DNA from: an uncultured delta proteobacterium
GTDB taxonomy: Bacteria > Desulfobacterota > Binatia > JACPRU01
Assembly (NCBI GenBank): GCA_963790365.1
Contig: CAWBOU010000043.1
Coordinates: 12,732-76,731 of the forward strand
Direction of reading: 5' to 3'
DNA length: 64,000 bases
Below the pieces are notes generated by a model. That model searched no databases, was not told the origin of the DNA, and worked only from the letters and a program-made list of their open reading frames with translations. Shown here one piece after another: positions 46,108 through 64,000 of the stretch; within the stretch, counting starts at the first letter, position 1; each line of letters starts with the position of its first letter. Made by a program: the position numbers and the translations under genes.

Positions 46108-46116
46108 GGTCTGATC

Positions 46117-47125: not shown

Positions 47126-47225
47126 GGGCCCGGGGGAGATCGATGACGCGAGGCAGCAGAGAGGGTGGCCGTCCGGCGATGGTCGGCACGGCGGCGGTGG
47201 CCCGCCGGGGACGGCGGGAGTGGCG

Positions 47226-49174
47226 ATGCCGCCCGCGATCGCCCTCGGCTTCGTGCTCGTCGCCGCCAAGGCGGCATACCTGCTCGCCCAGGCGCCGGCG
47301 AAGCCGCAAGGCGCGCTCGCGTTCCTCTCCGCGCTCTCGGCGATCACCGTCGCGGACGTCACGTTCGTCGCCGCGGTCGCGATCGCCACTGGCTCCTCCT
47401 CGTGGTCGCGCGCGTCGTGCCGGGGCTCCGCGGCGTGCTCAAGCCCGTGCTCGCCGCGACGTATTCTCTCGCTGCAGCGTTCGCGATCGCGAATCTCTCG
47501 ATCTTCGCGTTCTTCCGCATGCCGCTCACGCATGCACTGGTTTCGCTCGCGGGTGACGCGGCCGGCTTCTTCGAAATCCTCTCCGCGTCGCTCACGCTGC
47601 CGGTGCTCGCCGGGCTCCTCGGTGGCGTCTGGATCTGGGCCGGACTCCTGCTCGGGCTCCGGCTGCTCGTCGATGCATGCAGCGGCCCCGTGCGCCGCGA
47701 TGCGTTCGCCGTGCTCGTCGTCCTCGCCGCGCTCTGGTGCGCGTGGGGCGGCTTCGAGCTCGAAGCGCGGTGGGACAAACGGGCCGACCATCGCATCGCC
47801 GAGAATCCGCACGTGACGTATCTCGCGTCCGTTCTGCGCGCGCCGATCGACGAATCGCCGCTCGCGCTCGCGGAGGCCGCCACCGCGATCGACCTCGAGG
47901 ACTTCGACACGGTCGCGATGCGCGCCGAGCGGCGGGCGAACGCGCCGATCGTGCGCGCGGCGGCGTATCGGACCTCGCGGGTCGCGGCGGCGCAGCGTCC
48001 GAAGAACGTGATCCTCGTCGTGCTCGAATCGGTGTCTGCGAAGTGGCTCGAGCCTTACGATTCCCCTTATCCGGCTACGCCGTTTCTGGATGCCGAGGCG
48101 AAGCACGCGCTCGTGTTCGACGCGTTCTACGCGCCGGCCGGCAGATCGAGCGATTCGCTCGCGGCGCTCCTTCTTTCGGTGCATCCGCGAGTCTCCTGGC
48201 GCGACCTCACGGTCGACTTCCCGGATCTGCCGGGCGAATCGATCGCGGATCGTTTCCGCGAGAGCGGACGGCGGACCGCGCTCTTCACCTCGAGCGATCT
48301 CGGCTGGGCGAACTGGCGCGGCTTCGTCCGCGACCGCGGCTTCGACGTCGTGAAGGAGCATCGCGACCTCGATTGCGGCGCGCTCCTCACCTACTGGGGC
48401 GGCGAAGACCGCTGCGCGATCGACGGCCTCCTCGGCTGGCTCGCGGAAGACGACGAGCGACCGTTCTTCGCGATGGCGTGGACGGTGCAGACGCACCATC
48501 CGTACGAGCCGACGCCCGGCGCGCCGTTCCTCGACTTCTTCCACGGCGCGGCGCCGCCGGACGCGTACGACCTCGATCGCTATCTCAACGTGCTGCACGA
48601 CACGGACCGCCAGCTCGGGCGGCTCTTCGAAGCGCTGCGCGCGAGGGGCCGGGATCGCGACACGCTCGTCGCGATCGTCGGCGATCACGGCGAAGCGTTC
48701 GGCGACCCTCGCTCGATCTACGGGCACGGCACGACGCTCTACGACGAGCAGATGCGCGTGCCGATGATCCTCTGGAGCCCGAAGCTCTTCCCGCGCGGCA
48801 GCCGCTCGGCCGTCGTCGGCGGACATGTCGACCTCGCGCTCACGATCGCGGACCTCGTCGGCCTCGAGCCCGCGCCGACGTGGCAGGGCCGCAGTCTCCT
48901 CTCCGCCGAAGCGCCGTCGCGCACGTACTTCACGTCGACGGCCGATGGCCTCCGGCTCGGCGTTCGCGAAGCGCGCTGGAAGTACATCGTCGACGCGACG
49001 ACGGGTAAAGAGGAGCTCTACGACGTCGGCACCGACCCCGACGAGCGCACGAACGTCGCCGGGGATCACGCCGAGATCACGCGCCGCATGCGCCAGCGAG
49101 TCGCCGCGCGGCTCGAAGCAGATCGCCGCTTCTATTCGCCGTTGATCGCGACCGGCGCCCCGCAGCCAGGCTAG
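47226..49174 (+). CDS. LTA-synthase/sulfatase-family membrane protein (one apparent frameshift near 47385)
   Basis: The hydrophobic N-terminus switches frame at about 47385 into NVILVVLES, QTHHPY, TD..LG.L, GDHGEAF, LYDEQMRVPM, ELYD..DPDE..N. Confidence 0.75.
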
Positions 49175-49180
49175 CCGAAA

Positions 49181-49310
49181 CCGCCTCCCCCCTCACCCGC
49201 CGGCTTCGCCGGCCGGGCCGGCTCGCCAAACGCCCCTCCCATTCGGTCGGGTCGGCTCGCATCCGAACGCACAACGTGCGTTCGGATCCTCTTCCCCAAG
49301 GGGGAGAGGT
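49181..49310. repeat. REP-like palindromic element (CCCTCACCC/GGGAGAGG class) with an internal 12-bp hairpin
   Basis: Starts CTCCCC(C)CTCACCCGCCGGCTYCGCCG, as at 61151; contains ATCCGAACGCAC-AAC-GTGCGTTCGGAT (49261-49287); ends GGGGAGAGGT. Confidence 0.55.
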
Positions 49311-49344
49311 GAATTGGCGCACGCGTTGTGCGAGAGGAGCACTG

Positions 49345-50235
49345 ATGTCCTCTCCCCGCACCTGGCTCACCGCGGTCCGTGCGTATTCCTATCCGGCGAG
49401 CATCGTGCCGATCGCGCTCGGCACCGCGCTCGCCTACCGCGAGGTGGGAGAACTTTCGTTTGGCGCGTTCCTGCTCGCATTGATCGCCGGGATCTTGGTC
49501 CACACCGGCTGCAATCTCCTGAACGACCTCTACGATTTCCGTCAGGGCGTGGATCGGGCGGACACGTTCGGCGGCAGCGGCGTGCTCGTCTCGGGCGAGC
49601 TGACGGAAGACGCGATCGCGCGCAGCGCGTGGCTCTGCCTCGGGCTCGCCGCCGGCGTCGGGCTCACGCTCGTCGGCCGCGTCGGCACGCCGCTCGTGGT
49701 GCTCGGCGCGCTCGGCATCGCCGGCGCCGTCCTCTACACCGCGACGCCGGTCGCGGCGAAGTACCACGCCCTCGGCGCGCCGCTCGTCTTTCTCGCGATG
49801 GGTGTCGGCATGACCGTCGGCGGCTATCTCGTGCAGACCGGCGGCTGGAACGCCGTGATCGTGCTCGCGAGCCTCCCGGTCGGTTTCCTCGTGACGGCGA
49901 TCCTTCACGCGAACGACACGCGCGATCTCGCGGACGATCGCGAGAGCGGGATCCACACGCTGGCGATCGCGCTCGGCGCGCGCGCTTCGCGTGTGCTCTT
50001 CAGCTCACTCCTCGTCGCGACCTACGCTTCGACCGCGGCGCTCGCCGCAGGCGGCATCGTTCCTCTCGCCGCGCTCGCAACGTTCGCCACGCTACCGATC
50101 GCGGTCGGGCTCCATCGGCTCGCGTTCTCCGACACGGCCGAGCGAAGCGAGAGCCTCCGCGACGGTCCCGAGCGCACGGCGAAGCTGCATCTCGCGTTCG
50201 GCGCGCTCTACACGCTCGGCATCGCGTTCGGTTAG
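49345..50235 (+). CDS. menA: 1,4-dihydroxy-2-naphthoate polyprenyltransferase (UbiA family)
   Basis: WL.AVR.YS.PASIVP, NLLNDLYDFRQGVD, ILHANDTRDLADD..SGIHTLA; multiple transmembrane helices. Confidence 0.8.
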   Translation: MSSPRTWLTAVRAYSYPASIVPIALGTALAYREVGELSFGAFLLALIAGILVHTGCNLLNDLYDFRQGVDRADTFGGSGVLVSGELTEDAIARSAWLCLGLAAGVGLTLVGRVGTPLVVLGALGIAGAVLYTATPVAAKYHALGAPLVFLAMGVGMTVGGYLVQTGGWNAVIVLASLPVGFLVTAILHANDTRDLADDRESGIHTLAIALGARASRVLFSSLLVATYASTAALAAGGIVPLAALATFATLPIAVGLHRLAFSDTAERSESLRDGPERTAKLHLAFGALYTLGIAFG

Positions 50236-50246
50236 ACAATCTCCTG

Positions 50247-51023
50247 ATGCTCGGGCGACGCCTCGAAGAGACCGAATGGGTGGAGACGAACGGTCTCGGC
50301 GGCTACGCCTCGGGCACGGTCGGCGGGCCGCGCGCGAGCCGCGAGCAAGGGCTCCTCGTCACGGAGGTCGCGCCCGACCGACGCTTCGTTCTCGTCAACG
50401 GCTTCGACGCGTGGATCGACGGGCCGGCGGGCAAGTTCGCGATCAGCTCGCAGCGGTATTCGCCCGACGTCGTCCATCCCGACGGCTTCGAGCGCATCGC
50501 CGACTTCGAGCCGGATCCGTGGCCACGCTGGCGCTATGCGATCGAGGGCGGCGCGCAGGTCGAGCAGGAGATCGTCGTTCGTCACGGCACCTCGCTCACC
50601 GCGGCCGCGTGGCGCGTACGCGGGCCACGCATCGGCATCTCGCTCACGGTGCGACCGTTCTTCTCCGGGCGCGAGGCGAGCGCGCTCCACTCCGAGAATC
50701 CGACCTTCCGCTTCGACCCCGAGATCAGCTTCGGACGGCTCGTCTGGCGGCCCTACGCCGGCGTGCCCGGGATCGTGGTGGCGATGAACGGCGAGTATTC
50801 ACACCACCCTCTCTGGTATCGGAGCTTCATTTACGGGCGCACCGGTCTCGACGGCAGCGAGGATCTCGCCTCGCCCGGCGTGTTTCGCTGGGACTTCTCC
50901 CAAGGCGAGGCCGTGTGGATCGTCGCCGCGGAGGGCGCGGAGGGCCAGGAGCTGGTCGGCGTCGACAGCGCCGAATCCTGCCTCGCCGCCGTACGCGACG
51001 CCGAGCGCGCGCGTCGAAAGTAG
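50247..51023 (+). CDS. Glycogen-debranching-enzyme N-terminal domain only (stand-alone or truncated)
   Basis: EW.ETNGLGGYASGTV, SQRY.PDVVHPDG, W.R.F.Y, EDLASPG.F. The ORF stops at about 258 aa with no catalytic glucosidase domain. Confidence 0.7.
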   Translation: MLGRRLEETEWVETNGLGGYASGTVGGPRASREQGLLVTEVAPDRRFVLVNGFDAWIDGPAGKFAISSQRYSPDVVHPDGFERIADFEPDPWPRWRYAIEGGAQVEQEIVVRHGTSLTAAAWRVRGPRIGISLTVRPFFSGREASALHSENPTFRFDPEISFGRLVWRPYAGVPGIVVAMNGEYSHHPLWYRSFIYGRTGLDGSEDLASPGVFRWDFSQGEAVWIVAAEGAEGQELVGVDSAESCLAAVRDAERARRK

Positions 51024-51097
51024 GATTGCCAACCGCGCGACGCCGAGTCAGAGACCTCCAACGAGGGTCAGGCTTGCTTCGCTGCGGCTGACCCTAC
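51020..51097. repeat. GTAG-type REP-like element/doublet
   Basis: Plus-strand GTAGG at 51020 and minus-strand GTAGGGTCAG..CTGACCCT (arms 51064-51071 and 51088-51095) facing each other. Confidence 0.5.
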
Positions 51098-51126
51098 GAG
51101 TCCGAGAGAAAGGCGGGAAAACAAAG

Positions 51127-52107
51127 ATGCCGCATCCAACCAAGCCGGTCCCGACGAAGTCGTTCGAAGAGCACCTCAAGGACATGCCCAAGAACTGGGG
51201 GCGTTGGGGCGCGAACGACGAGCTCGGCTCGATCAACTTCCTGACCTCCGCCGAGGTGCTCCGCGGCGCGAAGTCGATCCGCTCAGGCAAGGTCTTCACG
51301 CTCGGCGTTCCCGTCGCGCGGAAGGAAGGCGACCCGATCTATCCGGGACGCGGTCAGCCCGTGAAGACGATGAACATGGACAAGGGCTTCTACATCAACG
51401 ACCAGGCGCCGCTCTTCCCCGGCGGGCTCGAGTACGCGGACGACGTCATCTTCATGTACGTGCAGGGCACGACGCAGTACGACGCGCTCGGCCACGTCTG
51501 GTACGGCGAGAAGCTCTACAACGGCTACGACGCGAAGACGACGATCGGCGGCCTCAAGAAGTGCTCGATCCAACCGATCGCCGAGCACGGCGTCGTCGGC
51601 CGCGGCGTGATGCTCGACGTGGCACGCTACAAGGGCGTTCCCCACCTCGGCGCGAACGAGCAGATCACGCTCGATGATCTCTTGAAGACCGCCGCGAAGC
51701 AGAAGGTGAAGATCGAGAAGCACGACATCATCGTCATCCACACCGGCTGGCTGAAGGTCTTCTACGACAAGGGCGCGGACGCGTTCTTCCCCGACAAGGC
51801 CGTGATGGAGCCGGGCATCACCGACGAGCCCGCCCTGATCCGTTGGTTCCACGAGATGGAGATCCCGTCGCTCACCGTCGACACGATCGCGAACGAGCAA
51901 TCGTGGTCGTCGGAGAGCGGTTACTTCCTCCCGCTCCACGCCGCGCTACTCCGCAACCTCGGCATTCCGTTCAACGAGATCAACTGGCTCGCCGATCTCG
52001 CGGAGGACTGCGCAAAGGACGGTCAGTACGACTTCCTCTTCGTCGGCGCGCCATTGAAGATCGTGGGGGGCACCGGGTCGCCGGTGAATCCGATCGCGAT
52101 CAAATAA
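51127..52107 (+). CDS. Cyclase-family (kynurenine-formamidase-like) metal-dependent hydrolase
   Basis: NWGRWGANDELGSINF, GTTQYDALGH, GRGVMLDVA, HTGW, LH..LL..LGI, PLKIVGGTGSPVNPIAIK. Confidence 0.88.
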   Translation: MPHPTKPVPTKSFEEHLKDMPKNWGRWGANDELGSINFLTSAEVLRGAKSIRSGKVFTLGVPVARKEGDPIYPGRGQPVKTMNMDKGFYINDQAPLFPGGLEYADDVIFMYVQGTTQYDALGHVWYGEKLYNGYDAKTTIGGLKKCSIQPIAEHGVVGRGVMLDVARYKGVPHLGANEQITLDDLLKTAAKQKVKIEKHDIIVIHTGWLKVFYDKGADAFFPDKAVMEPGITDEPALIRWFHEMEIPSLTVDTIANEQSWSSESGYFLPLHAALLRNLGIPFNEINWLADLAEDCAKDGQYDFLFVGAPLKIVGGTGSPVNPIAIK

Positions 52108-52115
52108 CCGCGACG

Positions 52116-53018
52116 ATGATGCGGGGGATCGCCGGACTCGCGCTGCTCGGCCTTCTCCTCGGCTGCCGCTCGTCGGCACCGGACAACTCGGCGCTCTACG
52201 CGGCGATCCGGGCGGGCGATGCCGCGCGCGTTCGCTCGCTCCTCGCCGGCGGCGCGGATCCGAGCTCGAACGCCGTGAGCACCGCCTTCGGCGAGCGAAT
52301 CATCCGACCGTCGTCGGGGCCACCGCCTCCGCCGCTCGTGCTCGCGATCACGGACAAGCAACCGGAGTGCGCGCTCGCGCTCCTCGAGGGCGGGGCGCGA
52401 GCAGATGCCCGCGACGACGACGGCTTTTCGGCGCTCGAGCACGCCACCTCCGGCGGCCAAGCGGCCGTGGTCGGAGCCTTACTCGAGCGCGGCGCCGACC
52501 CGCGCGCGGCGTCGAAGCACGGCTTCCCGCTGGTCTTCGTCGCGGCCGCCGGCGGGAACCCGGAGATCGTGCGCGCGTTCCTCGAGCGCGGCGCCGATCC
52601 GAACGCGCGCGATACCGCGGGCGCGGCGGCGAATCACTACGTCGGCTCGCTCGACAGCGTCTACGAGAAGCTTCGCGGCAAGACGGGGCAGCGCGCTCGC
52701 CCGGGCGAGACGGCGATGATGCTCGCCGCCCAGCGCGGGCATGCCGACGCCGTCCGCGCCTTTCTGGAAAAGGGCGCGGACCCGAACGCGCGCGACGAGA
52801 GCGGCCGCGACGCGCTCATGCTCGTCGCCGAGGAGGCTCTCGGGACCACCGTCGACGAGCGTTATCTGCGCGTCACGCAGGTCCTCCTCGAGCGGAAGCT
52901 CGATCTCGGTGCGAAGGATTCGGCCGGGGGCACCGCGCTCGACCGCGCCCACAAACTCGCCGGCCTGAGCCCGCATCATGCCGAGCTCGCGCGCCGGATC
53001 GAGGCCGCCTCACGGTAG
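52116..53018 (+). CDS. Ankyrin-repeat lipoprotein
   Basis: Lipobox LLLGC; repeated G.TAL..AA..G...V..LL..GADPNA.D units. Confidence 0.88.
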   Translation: MMRGIAGLALLGLLLGCRSSAPDNSALYAAIRAGDAARVRSLLAGGADPSSNAVSTAFGERIIRPSSGPPPPPLVLAITDKQPECALALLEGGARADARDDDGFSALEHATSGGQAAVVGALLERGADPRAASKHGFPLVFVAAAGGNPEIVRAFLERGADPNARDTAGAAANHYVGSLDSVYEKLRGKTGQRARPGETAMMLAAQRGHADAVRAFLEKGADPNARDESGRDALMLVAEEALGTTVDERYLRVTQVLLERKLDLGAKDSAGGTALDRAHKLAGLSPHHAELARRIEAASR

Positions 53019-53058
53019 CTTCTCCGCGGCTACGCGCCGACGACGGCGCTCCGGCGCG

Positions 53059-53307
53059 CTACGATCCCCGGTTGATCGCCCCCCACGCGGCGAGCAAGGC
53101 GACGGCGCCGACCACCGCGCCGATGAAGCCCGCCGCCTCGCCCGGTTGGTAGAACCCGAGCGCCTGTCCGCCGTAGGTCGCGACGAGCGCGCCGCCGATG
53201 CCGAGAACGATGGTGAGGATGATCCCGACCGCCTGCCTGCCGGGCATCACCGCTCGGGCGACGAGTCCGACGATGAGCCCGATGATGATCGTGCCAATGA
53301 TTCCCAT
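53059..53307 (-). CDS. GlsB/YeaQ/YmgE-family stress-response membrane protein
   Basis: IIIGLIVGLVARAVMPG..ILTIVLGIGGA..GFIGAVVGAVALL. Confidence 0.9.
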   Translation of the reverse strand: MGIIGTIIIGLIVGLVARAVMPGRQAVGIILTIVLGIGGALVATYGGQALGFYQPGEAAGFIGAVVGAVALLAAWGAINRGS

Positions 53308-53445
53308 CGTACGCCCTCCTCTTTCGCGAGCATGCAATCCCGTCGCGCTGCCGATTTCAACACTCGGGATTCCGACAATGGGAGGAAGATCCCATCCACA
53401 GAGCCGACGCGTCGCGACTTGCTTCCGACCACGACCTCAGTAGAT

Positions 53446-53790
53446 GTGCGGTATACGGACACTCGTTCGAGAGAGCTCGCTCTCCTTTCCCTCCTCTCGC
53501 TCCCCGGCCTCTTCGCGCTGGGGGTGGCAGTCGGGTGGATCTGGCTTACGCCGCCCGAGGAGCCCGAGCGGTGGGCGGTGTCCCCGGAGGACGAGCTCAC
53601 CCGTCCGCCCGAAACGATCGAGGAGCGGGAGCTCCACGCGTTTCCGGTGCGCCGGGCGTCGACGAAGAAGATCAGCCATTACCGCGACGCGAACGGCGTC
53701 TTCCACTTCGTCGAAGAGAAGTCTCCGTCGAACGCCGACCGGGAGCAGGCGAACAACACGGTCGAGCTCGAAGAGACGCTGAACCGCTGA
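53446..53790 (+). CDS. Small membrane-anchored protein with a DUF4124-like motif
   Basis: N-terminal transmembrane helix, then HYRDANGVFHFVE resembling the DUF4124 Y.W.D..G..HF core. Start uncertain. Confidence 0.45.
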   Translation: MRYTDTRSRELALLSLLSLPGLFALGVAVGWIWLTPPEEPERWAVSPEDELTRPPETIEERELHAFPVRRASTKKISHYRDANGVFHFVEEKSPSNADREQANNTVELEETLNR

Positions 53791-53828
53791 CGATTGACAT
53801 CCGGGGCGAGGAAGCCCGACTAGGGCGC

Positions 53829-56159
53829 GTGGCTCCGGCGAACGACGCGCTCCGCAGCGTTCACACGACAAATCTTCCCGAGCTCTTTCGCCAACTCGGG
53901 ATCAGCTTGGTCGTCTCGACGTACCAGGCCGGCAAGGTAATCCTCATCCGAGCGGACGGCGACAAGCTGAACACCCACTTCCGCACGTTCGGCAAGCCGA
54001 TGGGGATCGCCGCCGATCGCGCCCGGTTGACGATCGGCGGCGCGAACACCGTCTGGTTCTACCGGAACGTGCCTGCGGTCGCCGCGAAGATCGAGCCCGC
54101 CGGCAAGCACGACGCCTGCTTCCTGCCGCGCCGGCTCCACGTCACCGGCGACATCGACATCCACGAGATGGCCTACGACCAGAGCGGCGAGCTCTGGGTC
54201 GTGAACACCCGCTTCTGCTGCCTCTCGACGCTCGACGTCGATCACAGCTTCACGCCGCGCTGGCGGCCCCCGTTCGTGAGCGCCTACGCGCCGGAGGACC
54301 GCTGCCACCTGAACGGGCTCGCGCTCGGCGACGGCCGCGTGAAGTACGTGACCGCGCTCGGCGAGACGGACGCGGCGGGCGGCTGGCGCGTGAACAAGAA
54401 GAGCGGCGGCCTGCTGATGGACGTGGAGACGAACGAGATCCTGCTGCGCGGCTTGTCGATGCCGCACTCGCCGCGCTGGTACCGCGGCAAGCTCTGGCTC
54501 CTCGAGTCCGGCGACGGCGGCATCGCGATCGCCGATCTTGCGCGTGGTACGTGGCAGACGATCGCGCGCTTGCCGGGGTTCACGCGCGGCATCGACTTCG
54601 TCGGACCGATCGCGTTCGTAGGGCTCTCTCAGGTACGCGAGAGCGCGACGTTCAGCGGCATCCCGCTCGTCGAGCGTCTGAACGAGCGGACGTGCGGCGT
54701 GTGGGTGGTGAACCTCGAGACCGGCCAGACGCTCGGCTTCATTCGGTTCGAAGCGGGCGTGCAAGAGATCTTCGCCGTGCAGGTGCTGCACGGTATCCGC
54801 TTCCCGGAGCTCCTCGAGTGGAACGACGAGCGGCTCTCGCAGTCCTACGTGCTGCCCGACGAGGCGCTCGCCCAGGTCGCGCTGCCGAAGCCGGAAGACC
54901 TCGAGCGCTCCCCGCTCCACCACCTTCGCCGCGGCATCGAGCTTCATCGTACCGGCAAGCTCGACGAGTCGATCGCGGCTTTCGAGCGCTCGCTCGAGCT
55001 CGAGCCGAAGGACGTGAACGCGCGCCTGAATCTCGGCGTCGCGCTCGGCGACGCGGGACGGCACGACGAGGCGACCGCACAACTCGAGCAGGTAGTCGCC
55101 GAGGAGCCGAACCGCGCCGAGGCCTGGAACAGCCTCGGCTTCGCCGCGAGCCGTCGCGGCGATCCGCGCGCGGCCGTTGCGCATTACGAGCATGCGATCG
55201 AACGCCGGCCGGACTGGCCGCAAGCGCACTTCAATCTCGGCATGACGCTCCTCCTCCTCGGCGAGTACGAGCGCGGCTGGGTCGAGTACGACTGGCGCTG
55301 GAAGACGGGCGAGTTCACGCCGTTCCAGGCGCCGCATCCGCTATGGGACGGCTCGCCGATCCCCGACAAGACGCTGCTCCTCCACACCGAGCAAGGCGCG
55401 GGCGACGCGATCCAGCTCGCGCGCTTCATTCCGCTGGCGGCCGAGCGCGCGCGGAAGGTGATCCTCGTTTGCAAAGCGGAGCTCGCCCCTTTGTTCGCGA
55501 CCGTCCCGGGGATCGCAGAGCTCCGCGAGGCGGGGCGCATCGGCGTGAACGAGTTCGACGCGTATCTGCCGTTGATGAGCCTGCCCCGCGTGTTCGGCAC
55601 CACGCTCGAGACGATTCCGAACCGCGTTCCGTACCTCGACGTGGAGGCGATCCGCCGCCGCAAGGGTGGCGGGGCGCCGTCGATCGCCGCCGACGGCCGG
55701 TATCGGGTGGGCCTCGTCTGGGCGGGCAGCCCGACCCACAAGAACGATCGCCATCGCTCGCTCGCGCTCCGCGAGCTGTTGCCGATCTTGCGTACCCCCG
55801 GCGTTTCGTTCCACGCCTTGCAGGTGGGCGATCGCCGAACGGATCTCGCGGAGCTTTCCGCAGGCGTCACGGTGACCGATCTCGGCGATCAGCTTCGCGA
55901 CTACGGCGACACCGCGCTCGCGATCGACGCGCTCGACCTGATGATCGGCGTCGACACCTCCGTCGTCCATCTCGCGGGCGCCCTCGCCAAGCCGGTCTGG
56001 ACGCTCCTCCCGCTCGTGCCCGACTGGCGCTGGCTCACGACCGGCAGCACCACACCCTGGTACCCGACGATGCGACTCTTCCGACAGCTCGCGAGCGGCG
56101 ACTGGTCACCCGTCGTCGCCGAGGTCGCCGGCGCGCTCGCGGCTCGCCGCGCCGCGTAA
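53829..56159 (+). CDS. TIGR03032 (DUF4915) domain fused to TPR repeats and a GT-B (GT9/heptosyltransferase-like) glycosyltransferase domain
   Basis: SLVVSTYQAGK, TGDIDIHE, VNTRFCCL, PRWRPPF, EDRCHLNGLA, LSMPHSPRWY, LPGFTRG (DUF4915); 3-4 TPRs; EQGAGDAIQLARF, VGLVWAGSP, DTSVVHLAGAL, DWRW, PWYPTMRLFRQ (GT-B). Confidence 0.85.
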   Translation: MAPANDALRSVHTTNLPELFRQLGISLVVSTYQAGKVILIRADGDKLNTHFRTFGKPMGIAADRARLTIGGANTVWFYRNVPAVAAKIEPAGKHDACFLPRRLHVTGDIDIHEMAYDQSGELWVVNTRFCCLSTLDVDHSFTPRWRPPFVSAYAPEDRCHLNGLALGDGRVKYVTALGETDAAGGWRVNKKSGGLLMDVETNEILLRGLSMPHSPRWYRGKLWLLESGDGGIAIADLARGTWQTIARLPGFTRGIDFVGPIAFVGLSQVRESATFSGIPLVERLNERTCGVWVVNLETGQTLGFIRFEAGVQEIFAVQVLHGIRFPELLEWNDERLSQSYVLPDEALAQVALPKPEDLERSPLHHLRRGIELHRTGKLDESIAAFERSLELEPKDVNARLNLGVALGDAGRHDEATAQLEQVVAEEPNRAEAWNSLGFAASRRGDPRAAVAHYEHAIERRPDWPQAHFNLGMTLLLLGEYERGWVEYDWRWKTGEFTPFQAPHPLWDGSPIPDKTLLLHTEQGAGDAIQLARFIPLAAERARKVILVCKAELAPLFATVPGIAELREAGRIGVNEFDAYLPLMSLPRVFGTTLETIPNRVPYLDVEAIRRRKGGGAPSIAADGRYRVGLVWAGSPTHKNDRHRSLALRELLPILRTPGVSFHALQVGDRRTDLAELSAGVTVTDLGDQLRDYGDTALAIDALDLMIGVDTSVVHLAGALAKPVWTLLPLVPDWRWLTTGSTTPWYPTMRLFRQLASGDWSPVVAEVAGALAARRAA

Positions 56160-56184
56160 ACGAACCGTCATCGACGATCGTTTG

Positions 56185-56238
56185 TGCTCGAGCCTCGAGG
56201 GCACGAACACGTTCGACGCGAGCTGCGAGATCAAGAAG
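56185..56238 (+). repeat. 54-bp relic encoding a near-copy of the last 18 aa of the downstream secreted protein
   Basis: Translates CSSLEGTNTFDASCEIKK versus [18 protein letters not shown] at 58649-58702; 47/54 nt and 15/18 aa identical. Confidence 0.85.
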
Positions 56239-56338
56239 GAACTCGCATTTGTGATTCGCGAACACACCGTGGTACAGACGGCGCGTTCGTAACGCGTTGG
56301 GCGGTGGCCGGGAGCCGGTGCCGCGGAAGTGAGGCGGC

Positions 56339-58705
56339 ATGCGTAAGACGGTCTTCGCGGTCGATGGGATGCTCTCGCGTGAGCTCGCGGCCGTCAGCCG
56401 ACAACCGTGGCTGCTGAGCGAGATCGTCGAGCGCGGTCTCTTGCCCCGCGCCGCGGCCTACTATGCAGAGCTGCAGGCCCTGCCGAGGCGGATGCGGCGC
56501 GCGCTGCAAAGCCGCTGCGCGCGCTCGCTCGCCGGCGTGGCGATCCTGCTCGCGCTCGGCCAGGCGCCGGCGATGGCGGGCACGATCGCGGTCGACGGCG
56601 TCACCTGCGCGCTTCCCGCCGCGGTGACGACGGCGAATGACGACACGCCGACCGGCGGATGCGTGATCACGGGCACCGTGGGCGGCGCGGACACGATCAC
56701 GCTTCCCGCGGCGAGCACGCAGACGCTCGGGGTGGGGATCGCGACGCCCAGCGAAGACAGCGGCACGGAGCTCGTCACGAGCACGATCACGATCGCGGGC
56801 AACGGCGCGACGATCGCGCGTGACACGAGCGACCCCGACGTCTTCCGGCTCTTCACGGTCGCGGCGAGCGGGGTGCTGACTCTCGAGAACGTCACGCTCT
56901 CGGGTGGCAGCGCCGTCAACGGCGGCGCGGTTTACAACGACGGCGGCAGCCTCACGATCACGAACGCGAAGATCTCGGGGAACGCCGCCCTCGCCGGCGG
57001 CGGGGGAATCGCCGCCTCTAACGGCCAGGTGGCAATCAACTCGAGCACGATTTCGGGAAACTCGGCCGGCGATGCGACAGGTCCTGCAGAGGGCAGTGCC
57101 CTCTTCGCAGTTGGAAGCGGGTCGACCACGACGATCACGAACAGCGTGATCAGCGGCAATCAGACGTCCGGAACGGGCTCAGTGGTCGGAGCCGTCTCCG
57201 TGGGTTTCGGGGACGAGTTCACGGTTACGAACAGCACGATCAGCGACAATCGGGTATCGGGCGGTGTCGTGTTCGGCGCCGGGATCGGCGTCTTCGACAC
57301 TGCCGCGACGATCACGGGCAGCACGATCAGCGGCAACCGGGCGTACGGAAGCACCTCGGCCTACGGAAGCGGTGTAAATGTAGCTGTCGGGTACCAGACA
57401 ACAACGATCCTGAACAGTACGATCAGCGGCAACACCGCCGAGGCGGCCTCACAATTCGCGGAAGGCGCCGGTGTCTACGCTGTAGAAGCTGTCCTCGTCA
57501 TCGACAGCTCCACGATCACCCGGAATACCGTCGATTCCCCGTTGTTGCCTTATGGAGGCGGCATCTACGCGAACGACGTCACGTTGACCCTCCGGCGCTC
57601 GATCATCGCCGGCAACGATGCGCCGGCCGGCCCGGAAGTGTATATCGTCGACTCGGACGCCCCGACCACGACGCTCAACATCTTCGGTCTCAACAACATC
57701 CCCGGGACGGTAGGATTTGCCCCGGACGCGAGCGACATCGTGCCTCCCGCGGGCGTGTTCCTCGCCGACATCCTCGATCCCGTGCTCGGCAACAACGGCG
57801 GCCCGACACCGACGCACGCGCTGCCGCCGACCAGCATCGCGGTCGACGTGAGCGACGCCGGCTGTCCGGCAACGGACCAGCGCGGCGTGGGCAGGCCCGC
57901 TGACGGAGACGCCGACGGCCTGCCCGTCTGCGACATCGGCGCCTTCGAGCTCGCGCCGGCGGGCGTCGATCCCGACAACGACGGGATCCCCGCGAACATC
58001 GACAACTGCCCGACGATCCCGAACCCCGATCAGGCGAACGGCGACGCCGACGCGCTCGGCGACGCCTGCGACAACTGTGACGCGCTCACGAACCCGACCC
58101 AGCTCGACGCCGACAGCGACGGCTTCGGCAACGAGTGCGACAACTGCGCCGGCGAGATCAATTTGAGCCAGGGCGACTTCGACACCGACACGATCGGCGA
58201 CGTCTGCGACAACTGCCCGACGCTCTCCAATCCGAATCAGCTCGACTCCGACGTCGACGGCTTCGGTGACGTCTGCGAGGGCCTGCCCGCGCCGATCTTC
58301 TGCTTCGACCGCGTGGCGACGATCATCGGCACGAACCTCGCCGAGAACCTGATCGGCACGGAAGGCAACGACACGATCGCCGGCCTCGGCGGCGACGACG
58401 CGATCGACGGCTTCGGCGGCAACGACTTCATCTGCGGCGGCGACGGCAACGACGTGATCTTCGGCCGCAAAGGCAACGACTTCCTGAAGGGGAACTCGGG
58501 GAACGACTTCATCAAGGGCGGCAAGGGCGACGACGAGCTCCGCGGCAGCAAGGGTGACGACACCCTGAACGGCGGCGGCGGCGTCGACCAAGTGCGCGCC
58601 GGCAAAGGTACGGACGTGCTGATCGGCGGCAACGGCACGCCCGACACCTGCTCGGGTCTCGAAGGCACGGACACCTTCGACGCCACCTGCGAGATCAAGA
58701 AGTAA
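56339..58705 (+). CDS. Large secreted Ca-binding surface protein: long leader, right-handed beta-helix/choice-of-anchor-Q-like region, TSP3-like repeats, hemolysin-type GGxGxD repeats
   Basis: About 80-aa leader ending [11 protein letters not shown]; repeated (I/V)TNSTISGN..GGG; [32 protein letters not shown]; DxDGIxxxxDNCPxxxNPDQ repeats; GGxGNDxL repeats. Confidence 0.85.
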
Positions 58706-59918
58706 GCGAAGCGCAAAATTTGGGATGCGCGATCGCGGCGAGAGCTTCGGCCCTCGCCGCGAGGTCCCTGCCCTTCAGGCGCGCGATCCCGTACTCGGTG
58801 ACGACCGCGTCGACGCAGAAGCGCGGCGCCGTCACGACCGCTCCCTCGCCTAGGCGCGCGACGATCCGCGAGCGCTTGCCGTCCTCGGTCGTCGACGGCA
58901 GCGCGAGGATGGAGAGACCGCCGTCCGACGCGGCCGCGGCCTCCAGGAAGTCGAGGCTGCCGCCGACGCCCGAGACCTGCACACCGTCGATCGTCTCGCC
59001 GTTCGCTTGACCCATGAGGTCGATCTCGATCGTCGAGTTGATCGAGGTGAATCGCGGCAGCTTGGCGATGCGGCCGACGTCGTGCGTGACGCTCGCGGGC
59101 GCCATCCGGATCCGCGGATTGCGATCGGCGAAGCGGTAGAGCGTCGCGTCGCCGGCGAGCTCGCCGGTCACGACCGGCGGACCGCCCTCGGTCGCGTTCA
59201 GGAAGTCGATGAGCGCCTGCGAGAACATCCCCGAGAAGAGCCGCACGCCGCGTACCCCGGCGAGCCGGCCGAGCACGCGATCCGGCACCGAGCCGACGCC
59301 GAGCTGCACCGTCGCGTTCTCGGGCACGAGCGAGAGCACGTGATCGAGGATCTTCGCGTCGCGCTCGCTCGCCTTCGGAGTCCTGTACTCGAGTAGCGGC
59401 TCGTCGCTCTCGCACGCGAACGTGATTCGCCCGACGGGAATCGTGCTCGCGCCCGAAGTCCACGGCATGTTCGGGTTCACCTCGGCGAGCACGAGCTTCG
59501 CCTCGCCGATCAGGTCGCGCTGCACGCCGCTCGAGATGCCGAGGCTCACGCGTCCGCGGCGTGGAGGCGAGACTTGCGTGACGAGGACATCCGGCTCGAT
59601 CACACCCCCGCGGCGGATGACGCGGTGCACGTCGCCGTAGCGGATCGGTAGGATGCCGACGAGCCCGGCGCGCGCCCGCTCGCGCAGCTTCGGCGAGCTC
59701 TGCCAGGTGAAGTAGCGAAAATTCTTGCCGAGCCCGCGCTCGAGATAGCCGTACGCGCCGAACGAGAGCCCGGAGATCACGCGGAGGTCACGGAATCGAT
59801 CCACGCCGGTCGTGAACGCGCGATGCAGCGAGCGCGGCTCGACGCAGCCCGCCGCGAAGACCACCGTGCTCCCGTTCGGGATCGCCGCGATCGCCTCTTC
59901 CGGCGAGACGAGCTTCAT
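58695..59918 (-). CDS. Family I acetyl-CoA hydrolase/transferase (4-hydroxybutyrate CoA-transferase-like)
   Basis: [60 protein letters not shown]. Confidence 0.9.
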
Positions 59919-59974
59919 GCCGTTGCCTCCGGCGCGTGGATGGTCGAGAACACGAGGCTCGCGGAGGAGACTCG

Positions 59975-61141
59975 ATGGACTTCGGCTGGACCGAAGAGCA
60001 GCAAGAGATCCGGCGTCAGGTGCAAGCGCTCTGCTCGCATTTTCCCGACGAGTACTGGCGCGACCGCGACAAGACCGGCGTGTTCCCCTGGGAGTTCTAC
60101 GACGCCGTCGCCAAGGGCGGCTGGCTCGGCATCACGATCCCCCGCGAATTCGGCGGCGCCGGGCTCGGCATCGCCGAAGCGGCGCTCGTCTTGCAGACCG
60201 TCGCCGAGTCGGGCGGCGGCACGCAGGCCTGCTCCTCGATTCACCTCGGCATCTTCGGGCTCGAGCCGCTCGTGCGCTACGGCACCGAAGAGGCGAAGCA
60301 GAAGTATCTGCCGGACATTCTCGAGGGGAAGCTTCACGTCTCGTTCGCGGTCACCGAGCCGAATGCCGGCACCAACACGACTCAAATCGAAACCTTCGCG
60401 ACTCGCAAGGGCGACGACTACGTCGTCTCCGGCCGGAAGGTCTTCATCACGAAGGCGCGCGAATCGAAGAAGATGCTGCTCCTCACGCGGACGACGCCGT
60501 ACGACAAGGTCGCGAAGAAGACGGACGGCATGACCCTCTTCTTCGCGGACATCGATCCCGCGGCCGTCGAGGTGCGCGAGCTCGAGAAGTGCGGGCGGAA
60601 AGCCGTCGACACGAACATGCTGTTCATCGACGAGCTTCACGTCTCCGCCGGGGACCGCGTCGGCGAGGAGGGCAAAGGCTTCCGCTACATCCTCGACGGC
60701 ATCAACCCCGAGCGGATCCTCATCGCCGCCGAGTGCATCGGCATGGGCAAGCGCGCCATCGAGAAGGCCGTCGCGTATGCCAAGGAGCGCATCGTCTTCG
60801 GCCGACCGATCGGCATGAACCAGGGAATCCAGTTCCCGCTCGCGGAGTCGGCGGCGAAGCTGGAGACGGCGGAGCTCATGGTCTACAAGGCGGCCTGGCT
60901 GTACGACCGACGCGAGCCCTGCGGCAAGGAGGCGAACATCGCGAAGTACATGGCGGCGGAAGCGGCGTTCGAGGCCACGGACCGCGCGATGCAGACGCAC
61001 GGCGGTTACGGCTACATCAAGGACTACGACGTCGAGCGCTACTGGCGCGAGGCGCGCCTCTTCAAGATCGCGCCGATCTCGCAGGAGATGATCCTCAACT
61101 ACGTCGGCGAGCACGTGCTCGGGTTGCCGAGGTCGTACTAG
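59975..61141 (+). CDS. Acyl-CoA dehydrogenase
   Basis: FAVTEPNAGT, GRKVFIT, GINPERILIA, ERIVFGRPIGMNQ, QTHGGYGY, YWREARL.KIAPISQEMIL. Confidence 0.93.
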   Translation: MDFGWTEEQQEIRRQVQALCSHFPDEYWRDRDKTGVFPWEFYDAVAKGGWLGITIPREFGGAGLGIAEAALVLQTVAESGGGTQACSSIHLGIFGLEPLVRYGTEEAKQKYLPDILEGKLHVSFAVTEPNAGTNTTQIETFATRKGDDYVVSGRKVFITKARESKKMLLLTRTTPYDKVAKKTDGMTLFFADIDPAAVEVRELEKCGRKAVDTNMLFIDELHVSAGDRVGEEGKGFRYILDGINPERILIAAECIGMGKRAIEKAVAYAKERIVFGRPIGMNQGIQFPLAESAAKLETAELMVYKAAWLYDRREPCGKEANIAKYMAAEAAFEATDRAMQTHGGYGYIKDYDVERYWREARLFKIAPISQEMILNYVGEHVLGLPRSY

Positions 61142-61150
61142 CGTGAGCGT

Positions 61151-61264
61151 CTCCCCCTCACCCGCCGGCTCCGCCGTCGGCCTCTCCCCAACGGGCAGAG
61201 GCGAAGAGGATCCACCTCTCCCTTTGGGGAGAGGTCGGAGGCGAAGCCTCCGGGTGAGGGGGAG
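61151..61264. repeat. REP-like palindromic element (CCCTCACCC class) with 13-bp terminal inverted repeats
   Basis: CTCCCCCTCACCC (61151-61163) / GGGTGAGGGGGAG (61252-61264); internal ACCTCTCCC-TTT-GGGGAGAGGT; shares its 5' arm with 49181-49310. Confidence 0.65.
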
Positions 61265-62531
61265 GCGATTCGCGGTCGTCGCGCTCTCCCTAGCGCTCGC
61301 GACGGTGGTCGCCGCGAAGGACGAGCCCGCCCCCTCGTCCATCGACGGTCAGATCGCGTGGGTCGATCTCGGCGGCGAGCTCTGGATCGGCACGGCGGAT
61401 GGCGCGACGTCGCGGCAGCTCGGACCGGGCGCCGAGATGCGGCCCGCGTCGTTCTCGCTCGTGCAGGATCTGCCGGAGTCCTTCCGCTGGCCGCTCTGGT
61501 CGCCGGACGGCAAGCGGCTCGCGGCGTTCTACATCTCGCAGGGCGCCGGCCCCGCGACGAGCCGGCTCCTCGTCTTCGACGCGCCCTCCGGGCGCGTGCT
61601 CCACTCGTTCCAGGACGTCGATCTCCGGCCGATCTACGCGTACTGGGCGCCCGACGGCTCGCGCTTCGCGTTCCTCCATCAGACGGGCCCGGTGCACACG
61701 CTCTCGCTCTGGCCCGCCGAGGACCGCGACACTCCGCGGAACGTCGCGGCCGGCATCCCGCTCTTCTTCGATTGGCGCCGCGACTCGCGCGCGCTCGTGC
61801 TCCACGTCGCGCGCGATCCCGAGTCGAAGGATCGGAGCAGCGTGACGCTCCTCGATCCGTCGACGGGCGAGCGAACGCTCCGCACCTCCTCGCCCGCCGC
61901 GTTCGGCCCCGCCTCGTATTCGCCGGACGGCTCGTGGCTCGCCTACGGGATCGAGGCGCCGGACGGCAAGGCGCGGCTCGTGATCGAGAAGCGCGACGGC
62001 ACGAGCCGCAAGGATCTCGCCCGCATCGATCCCGAGGCCGCGTTCACCTGGTCGCCGGACGGGAAATCCATCGCGCTCGGCAAGACGAGCGACGAGCGCG
62101 CGCCACTGCTCGAAGAGATCGTTCGCATCGACGTCGCCTCCGGCCAGACCAAGTCGATCGCGAAGGAGATCATCGGCTGCTTCTTCTGGTCGCCGAAGAG
62201 CGACAAGATCCTCTACGCGGTCCGCGACCTCGACCGCGGCGACTGGGAATGGGTCGTCGTCGACGTGAAGAGCGGCGTGAAGACGCGGCTCATCCGCTTC
62301 GTGCCCTCCCCCGCGCTCGTGTTCGTCTTCCAGTTCTTCGACCAGTACGCGCTCTCGCACCGCTTCTGGTCGCCGGACGGACGCGCGTTCGTGTTCACCG
62401 GCTGGACGGGCGTCGACCAGCAGGCGGAAGGTCCGGTCGGGCCGCCCGCCGTGCACGTCGTGCCCGTGAACCCCGCGGAGAAGCCGCGCATCCTCGCCGA
62501 GGGGCACGTCGCGTTCTGGTCGCCGCGATGA
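61254..62531 (+). CDS. Secreted TolB-like/PD40 beta-propeller protein
   Basis: Signal peptide from GTG 61254; repeated WSPDG/WAPDG/YSPDG motifs. Confidence 0.75.
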   Translation: MRGRRFAVVALSLALATVVAAKDEPAPSSIDGQIAWVDLGGELWIGTADGATSRQLGPGAEMRPASFSLVQDLPESFRWPLWSPDGKRLAAFYISQGAGPATSRLLVFDAPSGRVLHSFQDVDLRPIYAYWAPDGSRFAFLHQTGPVHTLSLWPAEDRDTPRNVAAGIPLFFDWRRDSRALVLHVARDPESKDRSSVTLLDPSTGERTLRTSSPAAFGPASYSPDGSWLAYGIEAPDGKARLVIEKRDGTSRKDLARIDPEAAFTWSPDGKSIALGKTSDERAPLLEEIVRIDVASGQTKSIAKEIIGCFFWSPKSDKILYAVRDLDRGDWEWVVVDVKSGVKTRLIRFVPSPALVFVFQFFDQYALSHRFWSPDGRAFVFTGWTGVDQQAEGPVGPPAVHVVPVNPAEKPRILAEGHVAFWSPR

Positions 62532-62538
62532 GAACCGC

Positions 62539-64000
<1,462 letters not shown>

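Follow-up and report, generated by a model that had tools for sequence, protein, structure and literature searches.

A removable N-terminal segment that recruits a cytoplasmic maturation factor is known from RiPP precursors, whose leader peptides have recognition elements, and from Tat signal-binding chaperones such as TorD/DmsD, and some large surface proteins with repeats have conserved extensions ahead of the signal peptide, such as ESPR (PF13018) and the KxYKxGKxW signal. The N-terminal extension of serine-rich adhesins, which are handled by the accessory Sec system with GtfA/GtfB, is linked to their glycosylation in the cytoplasm prior to export. The passenger of another adhesin, HMW1, is a β-helix. 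This secreted protein is glycosylated at N-x-S/T sequons by HMW1C/NGT (GT41) and exported by two-partner secretion (PMC3012730). TibC and Aah (BAHTs), which are GT-B heptosyltransferases encoded next to the surface proteins TibA and AIDA-I, add sugar to Ser in the repetitive rungs of the β-helix (PMC4358343). OGT, SPINDLY and FlmG are modular enzymes, in which substrate-binding TPRs are combined with a C-terminal, sugar-transferring GT-B domain, and FlmG modifies flagellin in a cytoplasmic O-glycosylation pathway (PMC7591256).

The stretch of DNA analyzed here (the window; 64,000 nucleotides from an uncultured delta proteobacterium of the GTDB lineage Bacteria; Desulfobacterota; Binatia; JACPRU01) contains a pair of co-oriented genes (Table 1), for which the initial annotation had claimed a cytoplasmic DUF4915-TPR-GT9-like protein and an exported neighbor with β-helix rungs, TSP3-like and GGxGxD repeats and a long leader. 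Both descriptions are confirmed by the profile searches, and for the second protein also by the rung motifs and composition. The upstream frame starts with GTG and is identical with the recorded gene call P0004; the GC3 frame signal changes to its frame at about position 53800. Its product, in which no signal peptide was found, matches PF16261 (DUF4915) over residues 15–329 (E-value 3e-128) and TIGR03032 with 416.9 bits against a cut-off of 251.5 (DUF4915/TIGR03032 E-value 1e-125), as well as several TPR families of Pfam, and the AlphaFold2 model (pLDDT 92) divides it into a propeller (residues 1–330), TPR helices (355–492) and two Rossmann-like lobes (505–776). The propeller modeled alone (pLDDT 91.6, pTM 0.90) finds six-bladed Kelch, YWTD and NHL propellers as its best Foldseek matches; the likeness to Kelch domains, some of which bind peptides, is generic (TM 0.5–0.64), no enzyme occurs among the top 50 fold matches, and no solved structure matches the DUF4915 propeller in sequence. 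About 75 columns are invariant in an alignment of 33 DUF4915 sequences from many phyla; they are rich in His, Asp, Cys, Arg and Glu (HVTGDIDIHE, DRCHLNG, SMPHSPR, PGFTRG, SQVRE) and persist in every architecture, also where the partners are leaderless. Profile searches of the PDB relate the TPR region to the TPRs of OGT and SPINDLY, which are also the best fold matches of the whole-protein model. The similarity of the C-terminal domain to GT9 enzymes is weak: 16.6 bits for Glyco_transf_9 (PF01075; cut-off 22), an E-value of 1.6e-4 for TIGR02193, a profile match to WaaC/WaaF restricted to the donor-binding motif (E-value 0.06), and hhalign probabilities of 53–89% over 32–37 columns for the GT9 proteins of the same genome.

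Table 1. Features of the fusion gene, the β-helix gene and the gap between them
Feature	Position	Strand	Product or residues	Basis and remarks
DUF4915/TIGR03032 propeller + TPR + GT-B fusion gene	53829..56159	+	776 aa, cytoplasmic	profile matches, gene call, AlphaFold2 (pLDDT 92.3)
Six-bladed β-propeller, DUF4915/TIGR03032	53829..54860	+	about 1–345	profile matches, model, Foldseek
TPR region	54890..55304	+	about 355–492	eight helices; Pfam TPR families, AlphaFold2 helices
GT-B-like domain	55341..56156	+	about 505–776	GT9-type motifs HTEQGAGD..., ...DLMIGVDTSVVHLAGALAKPVW
Relic, 3' end of lost β-helix paralog	56185..56238	+	54 bp	47/54 bases identical to 58649–58702
Secreted β-helix protein, presumed substrate	56339..58705	+	788 aa	ATG start
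Conserved N-terminal leader	56339..56524	+	1–62	alignment; local HMM, E 6e-27
Sec-type h-region and A-x-A site	56525..56578	+	63–80	A-M-A, then G; read from sequence
N-cap and right-handed β-helix rungs	56579..57778	+	81–480	cap-family HMM, E 6e-68
Choice-of-anchor Q domain	57785..57952	+	483–538	NF041518, E 3.6e-17, 62.4 bits (cut-off 25)
Thrombospondin type-3-like calcium-binding repeats	57959..58288	+	about 541–650	PF02412, E 4.8e-10
RTX GGxGxD nonapeptide repeats	58319..58678	+	about 661–780	PF00353, E 5.7e-25, five stretches

The β-helix frame begins 179 bp downstream of the fusion gene, and neither a promoter nor a terminator was detected in this gap. The relic within it encodes CSSLEGTNTFDASCEIKK, the counterpart of the 18 residues encoded by 58649–58702, and no further similarity to the β-helix gene was found upstream of it. 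In the 788-aa protein about eight xTIxNSTISGN-type rungs follow the signal; the β-helix region is rich in Ser, Thr and Asn (30% of residues 141–480, versus about 10% in the long ORFs of the genome) and has five N-x-S/T sequons in residues 81–480, and the TSP3 region is also matched in part by NF047638. The short h-region and the -3/-1 Ala pattern recur in the family alignment as in the window protein.

As in the TibC/TibA and Aah/AIDA-I pairs, whose GT-B enzymes are relatives of the LPS heptosyltransferases, the gene of an enzyme with a GT-B-like domain and the GT9-type donor-binding motif adjoins the gene of a β-helix surface protein. However, the window enzyme exhibits no sequence match to TibC and possesses both a propeller and TPRs, neither of which belongs to the BAHTs as described in PMC4358343, while the β-helix protein lacks the barrel domain of an autotransporter and carries a dedicated leader before its signal peptide. 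The N-S-T of the rungs resembles the sequons of HMW1, but the GT domain has no GT41 family match, HMW1 leaves the cell by two-partner secretion, and neither a propeller nor a leader domain has been described for the HMW1C system. From OGT, SPINDLY and FlmG, whose modular design it shares, the window enzyme differs by the additional N-terminal propeller, by GT-B motifs that are GT9-like rather than GT41, and by its presumed substrates, which are Sec-exported β-helix proteins with a leader. The leader itself is unrelated in sequence to ESPR and KxYKxGKxW (no Pfam or NCBIfam match), longer than either, and tied to a propeller protein rather than to SecA2/SecY2. The proposed use of one enzyme for several paralogous precursors, with exchangeable tailoring enzymes, recalls RiPPs and TorD/DmsD; yet instead of peptides the presumed substrates are proteins encoded by open frames of about 400–2600 residues, their Sec-type signal has an Arg pair 10–40 residues from the h-region, and a propeller would serve for recognition in place of an RRE or a TorD fold.

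The leader is a real conserved domain. In an alignment with 19 further leader proteins, which come from several phyla, it forms an N-terminal domain of about 70 aa (about 60–90 aa in the family, helical-looking), and at E ≤ 1e-3 its HMM finds 1002 protein clusters, in every case at the N-terminus; no model of Pfam or NCBIfam matches it. The family exhibits a hydrophobic stretch of 11–13 residues and, in nearly all members, a canonical A-x-A site and then the β-helix cap. Within a single genome the mean identity is 47% for the leaders and 41% for the mature N-termini.

This domain is coupled near-exclusively to DUF4915, both genomically and phylogenetically. The assembly from which the window comes (4.6 Mb, 66% complete) has exactly one TIGR03032 gene, one leader-bearing ORF and one strong member of the β-helix family, all of them neighbors. 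TIGR03032 occurs in 28 and the leader in 15 of the 301 genomes of the window's class, and all 15 leader-positive genomes are also TIGR03032-positive (Fisher P-value 4.6e-18); in a second class (251 genomes), centered on the MAG that holds locus L039 and is recorded as Chloroflexota, the overlap is 11/12 (P-value 2.9e-17). The co-occurrence that the initial annotation had proposed to look for is thus strongly positive, and the near-confinement of the leader to propeller-carrying genomes across two bacterial classes points to an undescribed pre-export maturation step. Among 80 loci retrieved by DUF4915 homology (most compared sequences come from MAGs), 19–20 contain leader ORFs, all on the strand of the propeller gene and mostly directly adjoining it, in arrays of up to five. 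There are 1–16 leader genes per enzyme gene, often as tandem paralogs beside the propeller gene, with others dispersed in the genome; the dispersed leader ORFs that were retrieved all belong to the same β-helix family (18/18). A β-helix ORF of this family lies within 1.5 kb of the DUF4915 gene at 39 of 79 loci, and where both flanks extend over at least 3 kb, an adjacent one is present at 27 of 46 loci and absent from 19. In the propeller tree all 18 leader-linked propellers fall into one clade (SH-aLRT 97), which mixes TPR-GT fusions with standalone forms. The partners of a basal clade of DUF4915-TPR-GT fusions are leaderless and have plain signal peptides, and some leaderless partners of DUF4915 have no N-terminal signal and carry RTX repeats, presumably as type I secretion substrates.

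Some propellers with leader-bearing partners stand alone, with no glycosyltransferase in the vicinity (at some of these loci no other conserved neighbor at all), so the leader system does not inherently involve glycosylation. Elsewhere a split TPR-GT gene adjoins the DUF4915 gene, DUF4915 is fused to GNAT, or an Asp/Asn hydroxylase and a sulfotransferase are fused with it; this last fusion is accompanied by PAPS synthase and 2OG oxygenase genes and lies next to a β-helix gene of 1900 aa. Leader and β-helix partners thus accompany the propeller also where a GNAT or the hydroxylase/sulfotransferase takes the place of the glycosyltransferase. That the leader follows one DUF4915 clade, standalone forms included, while other fusions occur elsewhere, argues that the system probably centers on the propeller, with the glycosyltransferase as an exchangeable accessory tailoring module. 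The functional link between enzyme and leader protein is strongly upheld by the co-occurrence, but the division of labor suggested in the initial annotation has to be altered: because the leader follows the propeller with or without it, the GT-B domain would not be the heart of the system. With 55–79% identity across phyla, compared to about 30–46% for the leader, the propeller appears far too conserved to be assumed a mere adaptor; such conservation is more in keeping with an enzyme, or with a component that contacts a conserved machine, than with a leader adaptor.

We consider it about an even chance (probability roughly 0.5) that the two genes form a dedicated cytoplasmic maturation system acting before export, in which the propeller engages the leader and the TPR/GT-B part glycosylates the β-helix. 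The repeated fusion of DUF4915 to four kinds of modifying enzymes and the co-encoded PAPS synthase point to covalent modification as the purpose. We infer the following pathway, including its binding step, chemistry, sugar, target residues and pre-export timing. The β-helix protein would be synthesized with the conserved extension of ~60 residues ahead of an ordinary cleavable Sec signal; in the cytoplasm, the propeller of the neighboring enzyme would bind the leader, probably together with the conserved cap at the N-terminus of the β-helix, while the fused TPR and GT-B domains would use a nucleotide sugar to glycosylate Ser/Thr, or Asn of the N-S-T rungs. Export via Sec would follow, signal peptidase I would remove leader and signal together, and outside the cell the TSP3 and RTX repeats would fold with calcium. 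The propeller would be the invariant core, to which other lineages fuse or co-encode the hydroxylase and sulfotransferase with PAPS synthase, the GNAT, or nothing.

Or perhaps the propeller itself catalyzes the core modification, with the leader as a recognition handle and TPR-GT and the other enzymes adding a second, lineage-specific decoration? The standalone propellers whose only conserved neighbors are leader partners would fit this possibility, as would the invariant columns shared across phyla and architectures and a cross-phylum identity typical for enzymes; we nevertheless find it somewhat doubtful, as neither the fold matches nor the solved structures mentioned above offer an enzymatic relative and neither a cofactor nor a catalytic motif could be assigned. 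A propeller acting as a non-catalytic holdase or export pilot on the leader or N-cap, which would maintain an unfolded state, delay entry into Sec or hand the protein over to a conserved export component while the fused enzymes exploit the wait, is rather unlikely. It would agree with a leader that precedes the signal peptide and is hence accessible only before export, with the peptide-binding Kelch domains among the fold matches and with the existence of standalone propellers, and contact with a conserved machine could explain the high conservation, but the pairing of DUF4915 with signal-less, leaderless RTX proteins, as well as the four kinds of fused modifying enzymes and the PAPS synthase, speak against it.

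The leader might also be retained, if the hydrophobic stretch were a signal anchor that keeps the N-terminal domain in the cytoplasm, as the inward-facing part of a surface protein anchored in the membrane, with the propeller as its permanent partner in anchoring or signaling. A conserved 60-aa domain before a single hydrophobic segment is indeed how type II membrane proteins and anti-sigma factors are arranged, and within one genome the leader is conserved at least as well as the mature N-terminus; however, the shortness of the stretch, the A-x-A site before the cap in nearly all members, and the plain signal peptides (or none) in the partners of other clades make a retained leader improbable. 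Finally, it is very unlikely that the neighborhood is meaningless, i.e. that the fusion enzyme acts elsewhere (e.g. on the lipopolysaccharide core or another glycan) beside a bystander β-helix gene. LPS heptosyltransferases are the sole sequence likeness of the GT domain, the genes are separated by a gap, and some loci miss the adjacent β-helix gene, but against this stand the profile P-values of about 1e-17 obtained twice, the adjacency on one strand in many phyla and a leader specific to one clade, and LPS-core genes were not found nearby.

The leader-dependent maturation system that we propose is new, in that neither Pfam and NCBIfam nor the searched literature, in which no work on DUF4915 was found, describes it; the claim of novelty in the initial annotation is borne out to this extent. 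If the proposal is true, DUF4915/TIGR03032 would acquire a role in an undescribed pre-export maturation of β-helix proteins.

TIGR03032/DUF4915 (PF16261) is a very widespread and unusually conserved protein family, present in many phyla and with no known function; neither name was mentioned in the literature library searched. In the window it is represented by the product of the fusion gene. Because the genome has a G+C content of 69%, reading frames were judged by third-position GC, and this signal changes to the frame of the fusion gene at the GTG at 53829, which is its start. The protein scores 416.9 bits against TIGR03032 (cut-off 251.5) and 427.9 bits against PF16261 (cut-off 35, E 3e-128), the latter over profile positions 2-316 of 316, and is a full-length member of the family; it also matches many TPR families. 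The complete three-part architecture is common to more than 3800 proteins (identity 63-71%), with relatives labelled as Deltaproteobacteria, Gammaproteobacteria, Chromatiales, Binatia and Panacagrimonas.

Features of the window and of the compared loci
Feature	Location	Strand	Description
Fusion gene	53829-56159	+	776 aa, same as recorded gene call P0004; DUF4915/TIGR03032 propeller, TPRs, GT-B domain
Beta-helix gene	56339-58705	+	788 aa
Putative relic	56185-56238		54 bp in the spacer between both genes; matches the last 18 codons of the beta-helix gene at 47/54 bases, no stop codon after
Upstream genes	47165-53790	+	sulfatase-family protein (long N-terminal part), UbiA prenyltransferase, GDE_N-only ORF, putative cyclase, ankyrin-repeat protein, 270-aa ORF without family
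Phenylacetate catabolism cluster	41936-47125		PaaK-like ligase, two PaaA/PaaC-family subunits, PaaX regulator
Co-oriented ORFs	59812-63999		444 aa; 462 aa with PD40 repeats; >487 aa, leaving the window
Second cap-HMM match, own genome	G000:C7:110505-113254		E ~1e-6, spread over two adjacent reading frames
Sulfotransferase-type locus, Wenzhouxiangellaceae	L058:3440-17755		PAPS synthase (ATP sulfurylase and APS kinase), Asp/Asn hydroxylase + sulfotransferase + DUF4915, 214-aa 2OG-Fe(II) oxygenase, 1900-aa beta-helix protein; likewise in L059 and L067
GNAT fusion, Planctomycetota MAG	L078:8909-11173		GNAT acetyltransferase domain precedes DUF4915 in one fused gene
PAPS synthase-like ORF, Gammaproteobacteria MAG	L017:3495-4130		directly 5' of the DUF4915-TPR-GT gene

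The AlphaFold2 model of the whole fusion protein (pLDDT 92) retrieved in Foldseek the TPR plus GT-B protein O-glycosyltransferases SPINDLY, bacterial OGTs and human OGT as the best matches (top entries 8dti, 7y4i and 5djs, E ~1e-13), with TM values of just 0.18-0.32 because the domain arrangements differ. TPR repeats followed by a GT-B domain, as found in the model, constitute the architecture of GT41 (OGT, SPINDLY, HMW1C), but the catalytic domain does not belong to GT41 by sequence: no GT41 Pfam family was matched, the whole-protein profile retrieved only TPR proteins among solved structures, and the PDB profile matches to OGT and SPY were confined to the TPR region (query 366-499). The GT region of the model shows two Rossmann-like lobes. 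Its assignment to GT9 was also dropped, as the last 290 residues score only 16.6 bits over 28 residues against PF01075 (Glyco_transf_9), below the Pfam gathering score of 22 (the homologue from locus L057 scores 32.9 bits), and the donor-binding motif alone (..vDtG..HLAaAlg.P..) can be aligned. The domain sequence matched no solved structure and its profile retrieved WaaC and WaaF only, weakly and over this motif (E 0.06), while hhalign comparison with the GT9 proteins of the same genome gave probabilities of 53-89% over the 32-37 columns of the same motif. Since the alignment is confined to it, we refer to a "GT-B domain with GT9-type motifs". A GAGD motif, kept in 15 of 17 homologues, would correspond to the catalytic Asp of WaaC. 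Unlike the BAHT enzymes (TibC/Aah), the domain shows no sequence match to TibC, no chain of which was found among the PDB matches of the GT domain or its profile.

The beta-helix gene begins 179 bp 3' of the fusion gene, and its product carries a long N-terminal extension followed by a short h-region that ends with A-M-A|G at residue 80, about 8 rungs of the xTIxNSTISGN type, and then a choice-of-anchor Q domain and repeats of the TSP3 and RTX types. Ser, Thr and Asn together make up 30% of residues 141-480. The GGxGxD repeats of the RTX type (PF00353, E 6e-25) are located near the C-terminus, yet an N-terminal h-region with A-x-A is also present. The protein was rejected as a passenger of an autotransporter or two-partner secretion system, as Pfam and NCBIfam reveal only the RTX, TSP3 and choice-of-anchor Q domains, without a beta-barrel or TPS domain. 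The initial annotation had described the domains of the enzyme, the adjacency of the two genes, the rungs, the TSP3 and RTX repeats and the long leader, and this description proved accurate throughout.

When the 788-aa protein was compared by BLAST with every ORF of 80 DUF4915 loci, obtained by a scan with one genome per species, relatives were found to adjoin the propeller gene directly in dozens of them, and many of the alignments begin at residues 1-35, i.e. inside the leader. The leader aligns as ..AAW...L....PWL..LL..G..L..RF...Y..L..LPR..RR.LQRKL.., with an optional insert of up to ~30 residues, followed by ..SLAGAALLLAL.Q.P..AA|TITV.. and, after leader and signal, by the motif C-S-L-x-E-A-I-x-N-A-N of the cap, the conserved start of the mature beta-helix. 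The leader family was defined by this alignment (A3) as an N-terminal ..PWL..LL..G..L..RF...Y..L..LPR..RR.LQ.., a short h-region with A-x-A and a beta-helix cap. The sequence from the window belongs to it (E 6e-27 with the local HMM, 4e-29 in the genome search), with a degenerate first motif (AAW). The h-region of the family is just 11-13 residues long and conforms to the -3/-1 rule, and is therefore read as a predicted cleavable Sec signal. Against 1.84 billion representative proteins, the leader profile matched 1002 clusters at E<=1e-3, a number that falls to 723 at E<=1e-10, and none of the matches listed starts beyond residue 45. A comparison inside one genome showed the leaders to be conserved no less than the mature N-termini (mean identity 47% vs 41%).

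No model of the leader was found in Pfam or NCBIfam, and several known types of N-terminal extension were considered and rejected. ESPR (PF13018) was dismissed because five leaders searched against Pfam at E<=1 gave no match. In a Tat signal S/T-R-R-x-F-L-K directly precedes the h-region, whereas LPRxxRRxLQ is separated from it by 10 residues here and by up to ~40 in the insert-bearing paralogs; at such a distance the Arg pair is not a Tat motif, and the Tat-signal models gave no match to the leader. A miscalled start, with translation from the internal Met at residue 52 yielding an ordinary signal peptide of 29 aa, was rejected, as the 50 residues before it can be aligned with leaders from other phyla and score E 6e-27.

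Leader ORFs were identified in 19-20 of the 80 loci and always share the strand of the propeller gene. The gaps usually measure 1-250 bp, and as many as five leader ORFs stand in tandem (L003, L004). An HMM built from the first 230 residues of the mature protein detected a family member within 1.5 kb in 39 of 79 loci, and in 27 of the 46 loci whose flanks extend 3 kb or more on each side. On the scale of whole genomes, TIGR03032 was found above the cut-off in 28 of the 301 genomes of the window's class and a strong leader match (E<1e-10) in 15, all 15 among those 28 (Fisher p 4.6e-18) and all with a fusion-sized propeller ORF. In the second class (251 genomes, centred on a Chloroflexota MAG) 12 genomes contain TIGR03032, 12 the leader and 11 both (p 2.9e-17), with propeller ORFs of standalone and of fusion size. 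The exceptions are a leader ORF without a TIGR03032 match (G472) and, in a genome without a leader, a partial TIGR03032 match located at the end of a contig (G510), both of which may be due to incomplete MAGs. The co-occurrence of TIGR03032 and the leader, proposed in the initial annotation as a check, was thus found in two classes (15/15 and 11/12) and at the adjoining loci. The leader genes number 1-16 per one to few enzyme genes (16 in G228/G307, 11 in G439) and many are distant from the enzyme gene; all 18 dispersed leader ORFs that were fetched encode members of the same beta-helix family. We regard a functional link between the enzyme and its beta-helix partner as highly probable. Two weaker types of TIGR03032 matches were observed in the window's class: single ORFs of ~290 aa in ~70 genomes (E 1e-4 to 1e-6, model positions ~190-300) and a distant DUF4915-like subfamily (E 1e-20 to 1e-33). 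Both may be remote relatives of the propeller, a possible hint at the origin of the family.

In the tree of 79 propeller domains, all 18 leader-linked propellers fall into one clade (SH-aLRT 97), which mixes TPR-GT fusions with standalone propellers; outside it there are 24 propellers with leaderless beta-helix neighbours and none linked to a leader. On this tree, the presence and absence of the leader requires just two changes. The near-exclusive coupling of a real leader to one DUF4915 clade is, like the domain make-up, directly observed. The leaderless partners of the basal DUF4915-TPR-GT clade begin with a plain signal peptide, those of Cyanobacteria have RTX repeats and no signal, and those of Planctomycetota and Wenzhouxiangella show other N-terminal motifs. 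As the leader is confined to one clade and leaderless pairs are found outside it, we conclude that the propeller and the beta-helix protein are the ancestral, general pair, that the leader arose within one propeller clade, and that the glycosyltransferase is one of several exchangeable add-ons.

In the loci analyzed, DUF4915 occurs in the three-part form (DUF4915-TPR-GT, ~780 aa), as a standalone domain (~360 aa), with TPRs only (~480 aa), as a split pair in which the DUF4915 gene comes after a TPR-GT gene (L057), C-terminal to an Asp/Asn beta-hydroxylase and a sulfotransferase (~1000 aa), and C-terminal to GNAT (L078). The sulfotransferase-type loci possess a PAPS synthase upstream and an extra 2OG-Fe(II) oxygenase between the enzyme gene and the beta-helix gene, and the gene row in Wenzhouxiangellaceae looks like a complete cassette for hydroxylating and sulfating a protein. 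The propeller of the GNAT fusion has an insert of ~35 residues within one blade, and the end of its gene is overlapped by a 1340-aa beta-helix ORF. The propeller is kept across forms that carry different modifying enzymes and is thus the constant part of cassettes with varied protein-modifying chemistries. The ORF at L017 falls into one cluster with the PAPS synthases of these sulfotransferase-type loci, a hint at possible combinations of sulfation with glycosylation modules.

Neither the upstream genes nor the downstream acetyl-CoA hydrolase/transferase gene recur beside DUF4915 in the loci compared, and all-against-all clustering of neighbour ORFs for a third conserved partner gave only shadow ORFs and unrelated WD40, cyclase/AAA, ABC and SDR proteins, with the exception of the PAPS synthase and 2OG oxygenase of the sulfotransferase-type loci. 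Among the upstream genes, the coding signal of the GDE_N-only ORF begins near 50230; an acetyl-CoA hydrolase/transferase is encoded 3' of the beta-helix gene on the opposite strand. A promoter and terminator scan of 52800-59200 found no sites, which says nothing for or against an operon. The 54-bp repeat in the spacer was probably left by a lost tandem paralog, because in relatives the enzyme gene is bordered by whole rows of paralogs. The assembly itself (a MAG of 4.6 Mb, 66% complete) contains one TIGR03032 gene, one leader-bearing ORF and one strong member of the beta-helix family, i.e. the two adjoining genes; the weak second cap-HMM match could represent a leaderless paralog that is either frameshifted or divergent. 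Elsewhere in the window, the phenylacetate catabolism cluster is ordinary, and the three co-oriented ORFs show no family match other than the PD40 repeats.

These data are consistent with a mechanism to which we assign a probability of about 0.5 as a whole: in the cytoplasm, the propeller would engage either the leader or the cap, residues of the rungs would then be glycosylated by the TPR-GT domain, the product would be exported by Sec, and signal peptidase would take off the leader together with the signal. As precedents, TibC/Aah modify Ser in beta-helix rungs (PMC4358343), HMW1C acts on N-x-S/T sequons (PMC3012730), and FlmG is a modular TPR-GT enzyme (PMC7591256). The main competing explanation, according to which the propeller itself is the core enzyme, draws on the ~75 columns that are invariant among 33 propellers from many phyla and enriched in His, Asp, Cys, Arg and Glu. 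Every architecture retains these columns, also where the partners lack a leader; such conservation stands against a purely adaptor role. Modelled alone, the domain is a six-bladed propeller (pLDDT 91.6, pTM 0.90) that resembles designed six-bladed propellers, the peptide-binding Kelch domains of KLHL3 and Keap1, YWTD propellers and the TRIM2 NHL domain (TM 0.5-0.64). The likeness to Kelch, YWTD and NHL folds is generic, the top 50 fold matches include no enzymes, and a search of solved structures with the propeller sequence gave no match. We consider a catalytic propeller less probable, and glycosylation of the rungs by the TPR-GT domain remains our preferred reading.

The locus and the comparative data give DUF4915 a testable context, with presumed substrates (leader-bearing beta-helix exoproteins), a candidate for recognition (the leader) and a predicted chemistry for this variant (glycosyl transfer). 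As a tentative proposal, less probable than the preferred reading, DUF4915 could represent a new class of cytoplasmic protein-modifying enzyme, central to a leader-guided, RiPP-like maturation of large secreted beta-helix proteins, in which a removable leader of ~65 aa ahead of the Sec signal would recruit the propeller, one enzyme would serve up to 16 paralogous substrates per genome, and fused exchangeable tailoring domains (glycosyltransferase, Asp/Asn hydroxylase, sulfotransferase, GNAT) would diversify the surface chemistry of the product. If true, leader-guided post-translational modification would extend from small peptides to large Sec-exported proteins, the leader would represent a new kind of extended signal peptide, and environmental bacteria would vary the chemistry of adhesin-like surfaces by swapping tailoring domains on one scaffold.
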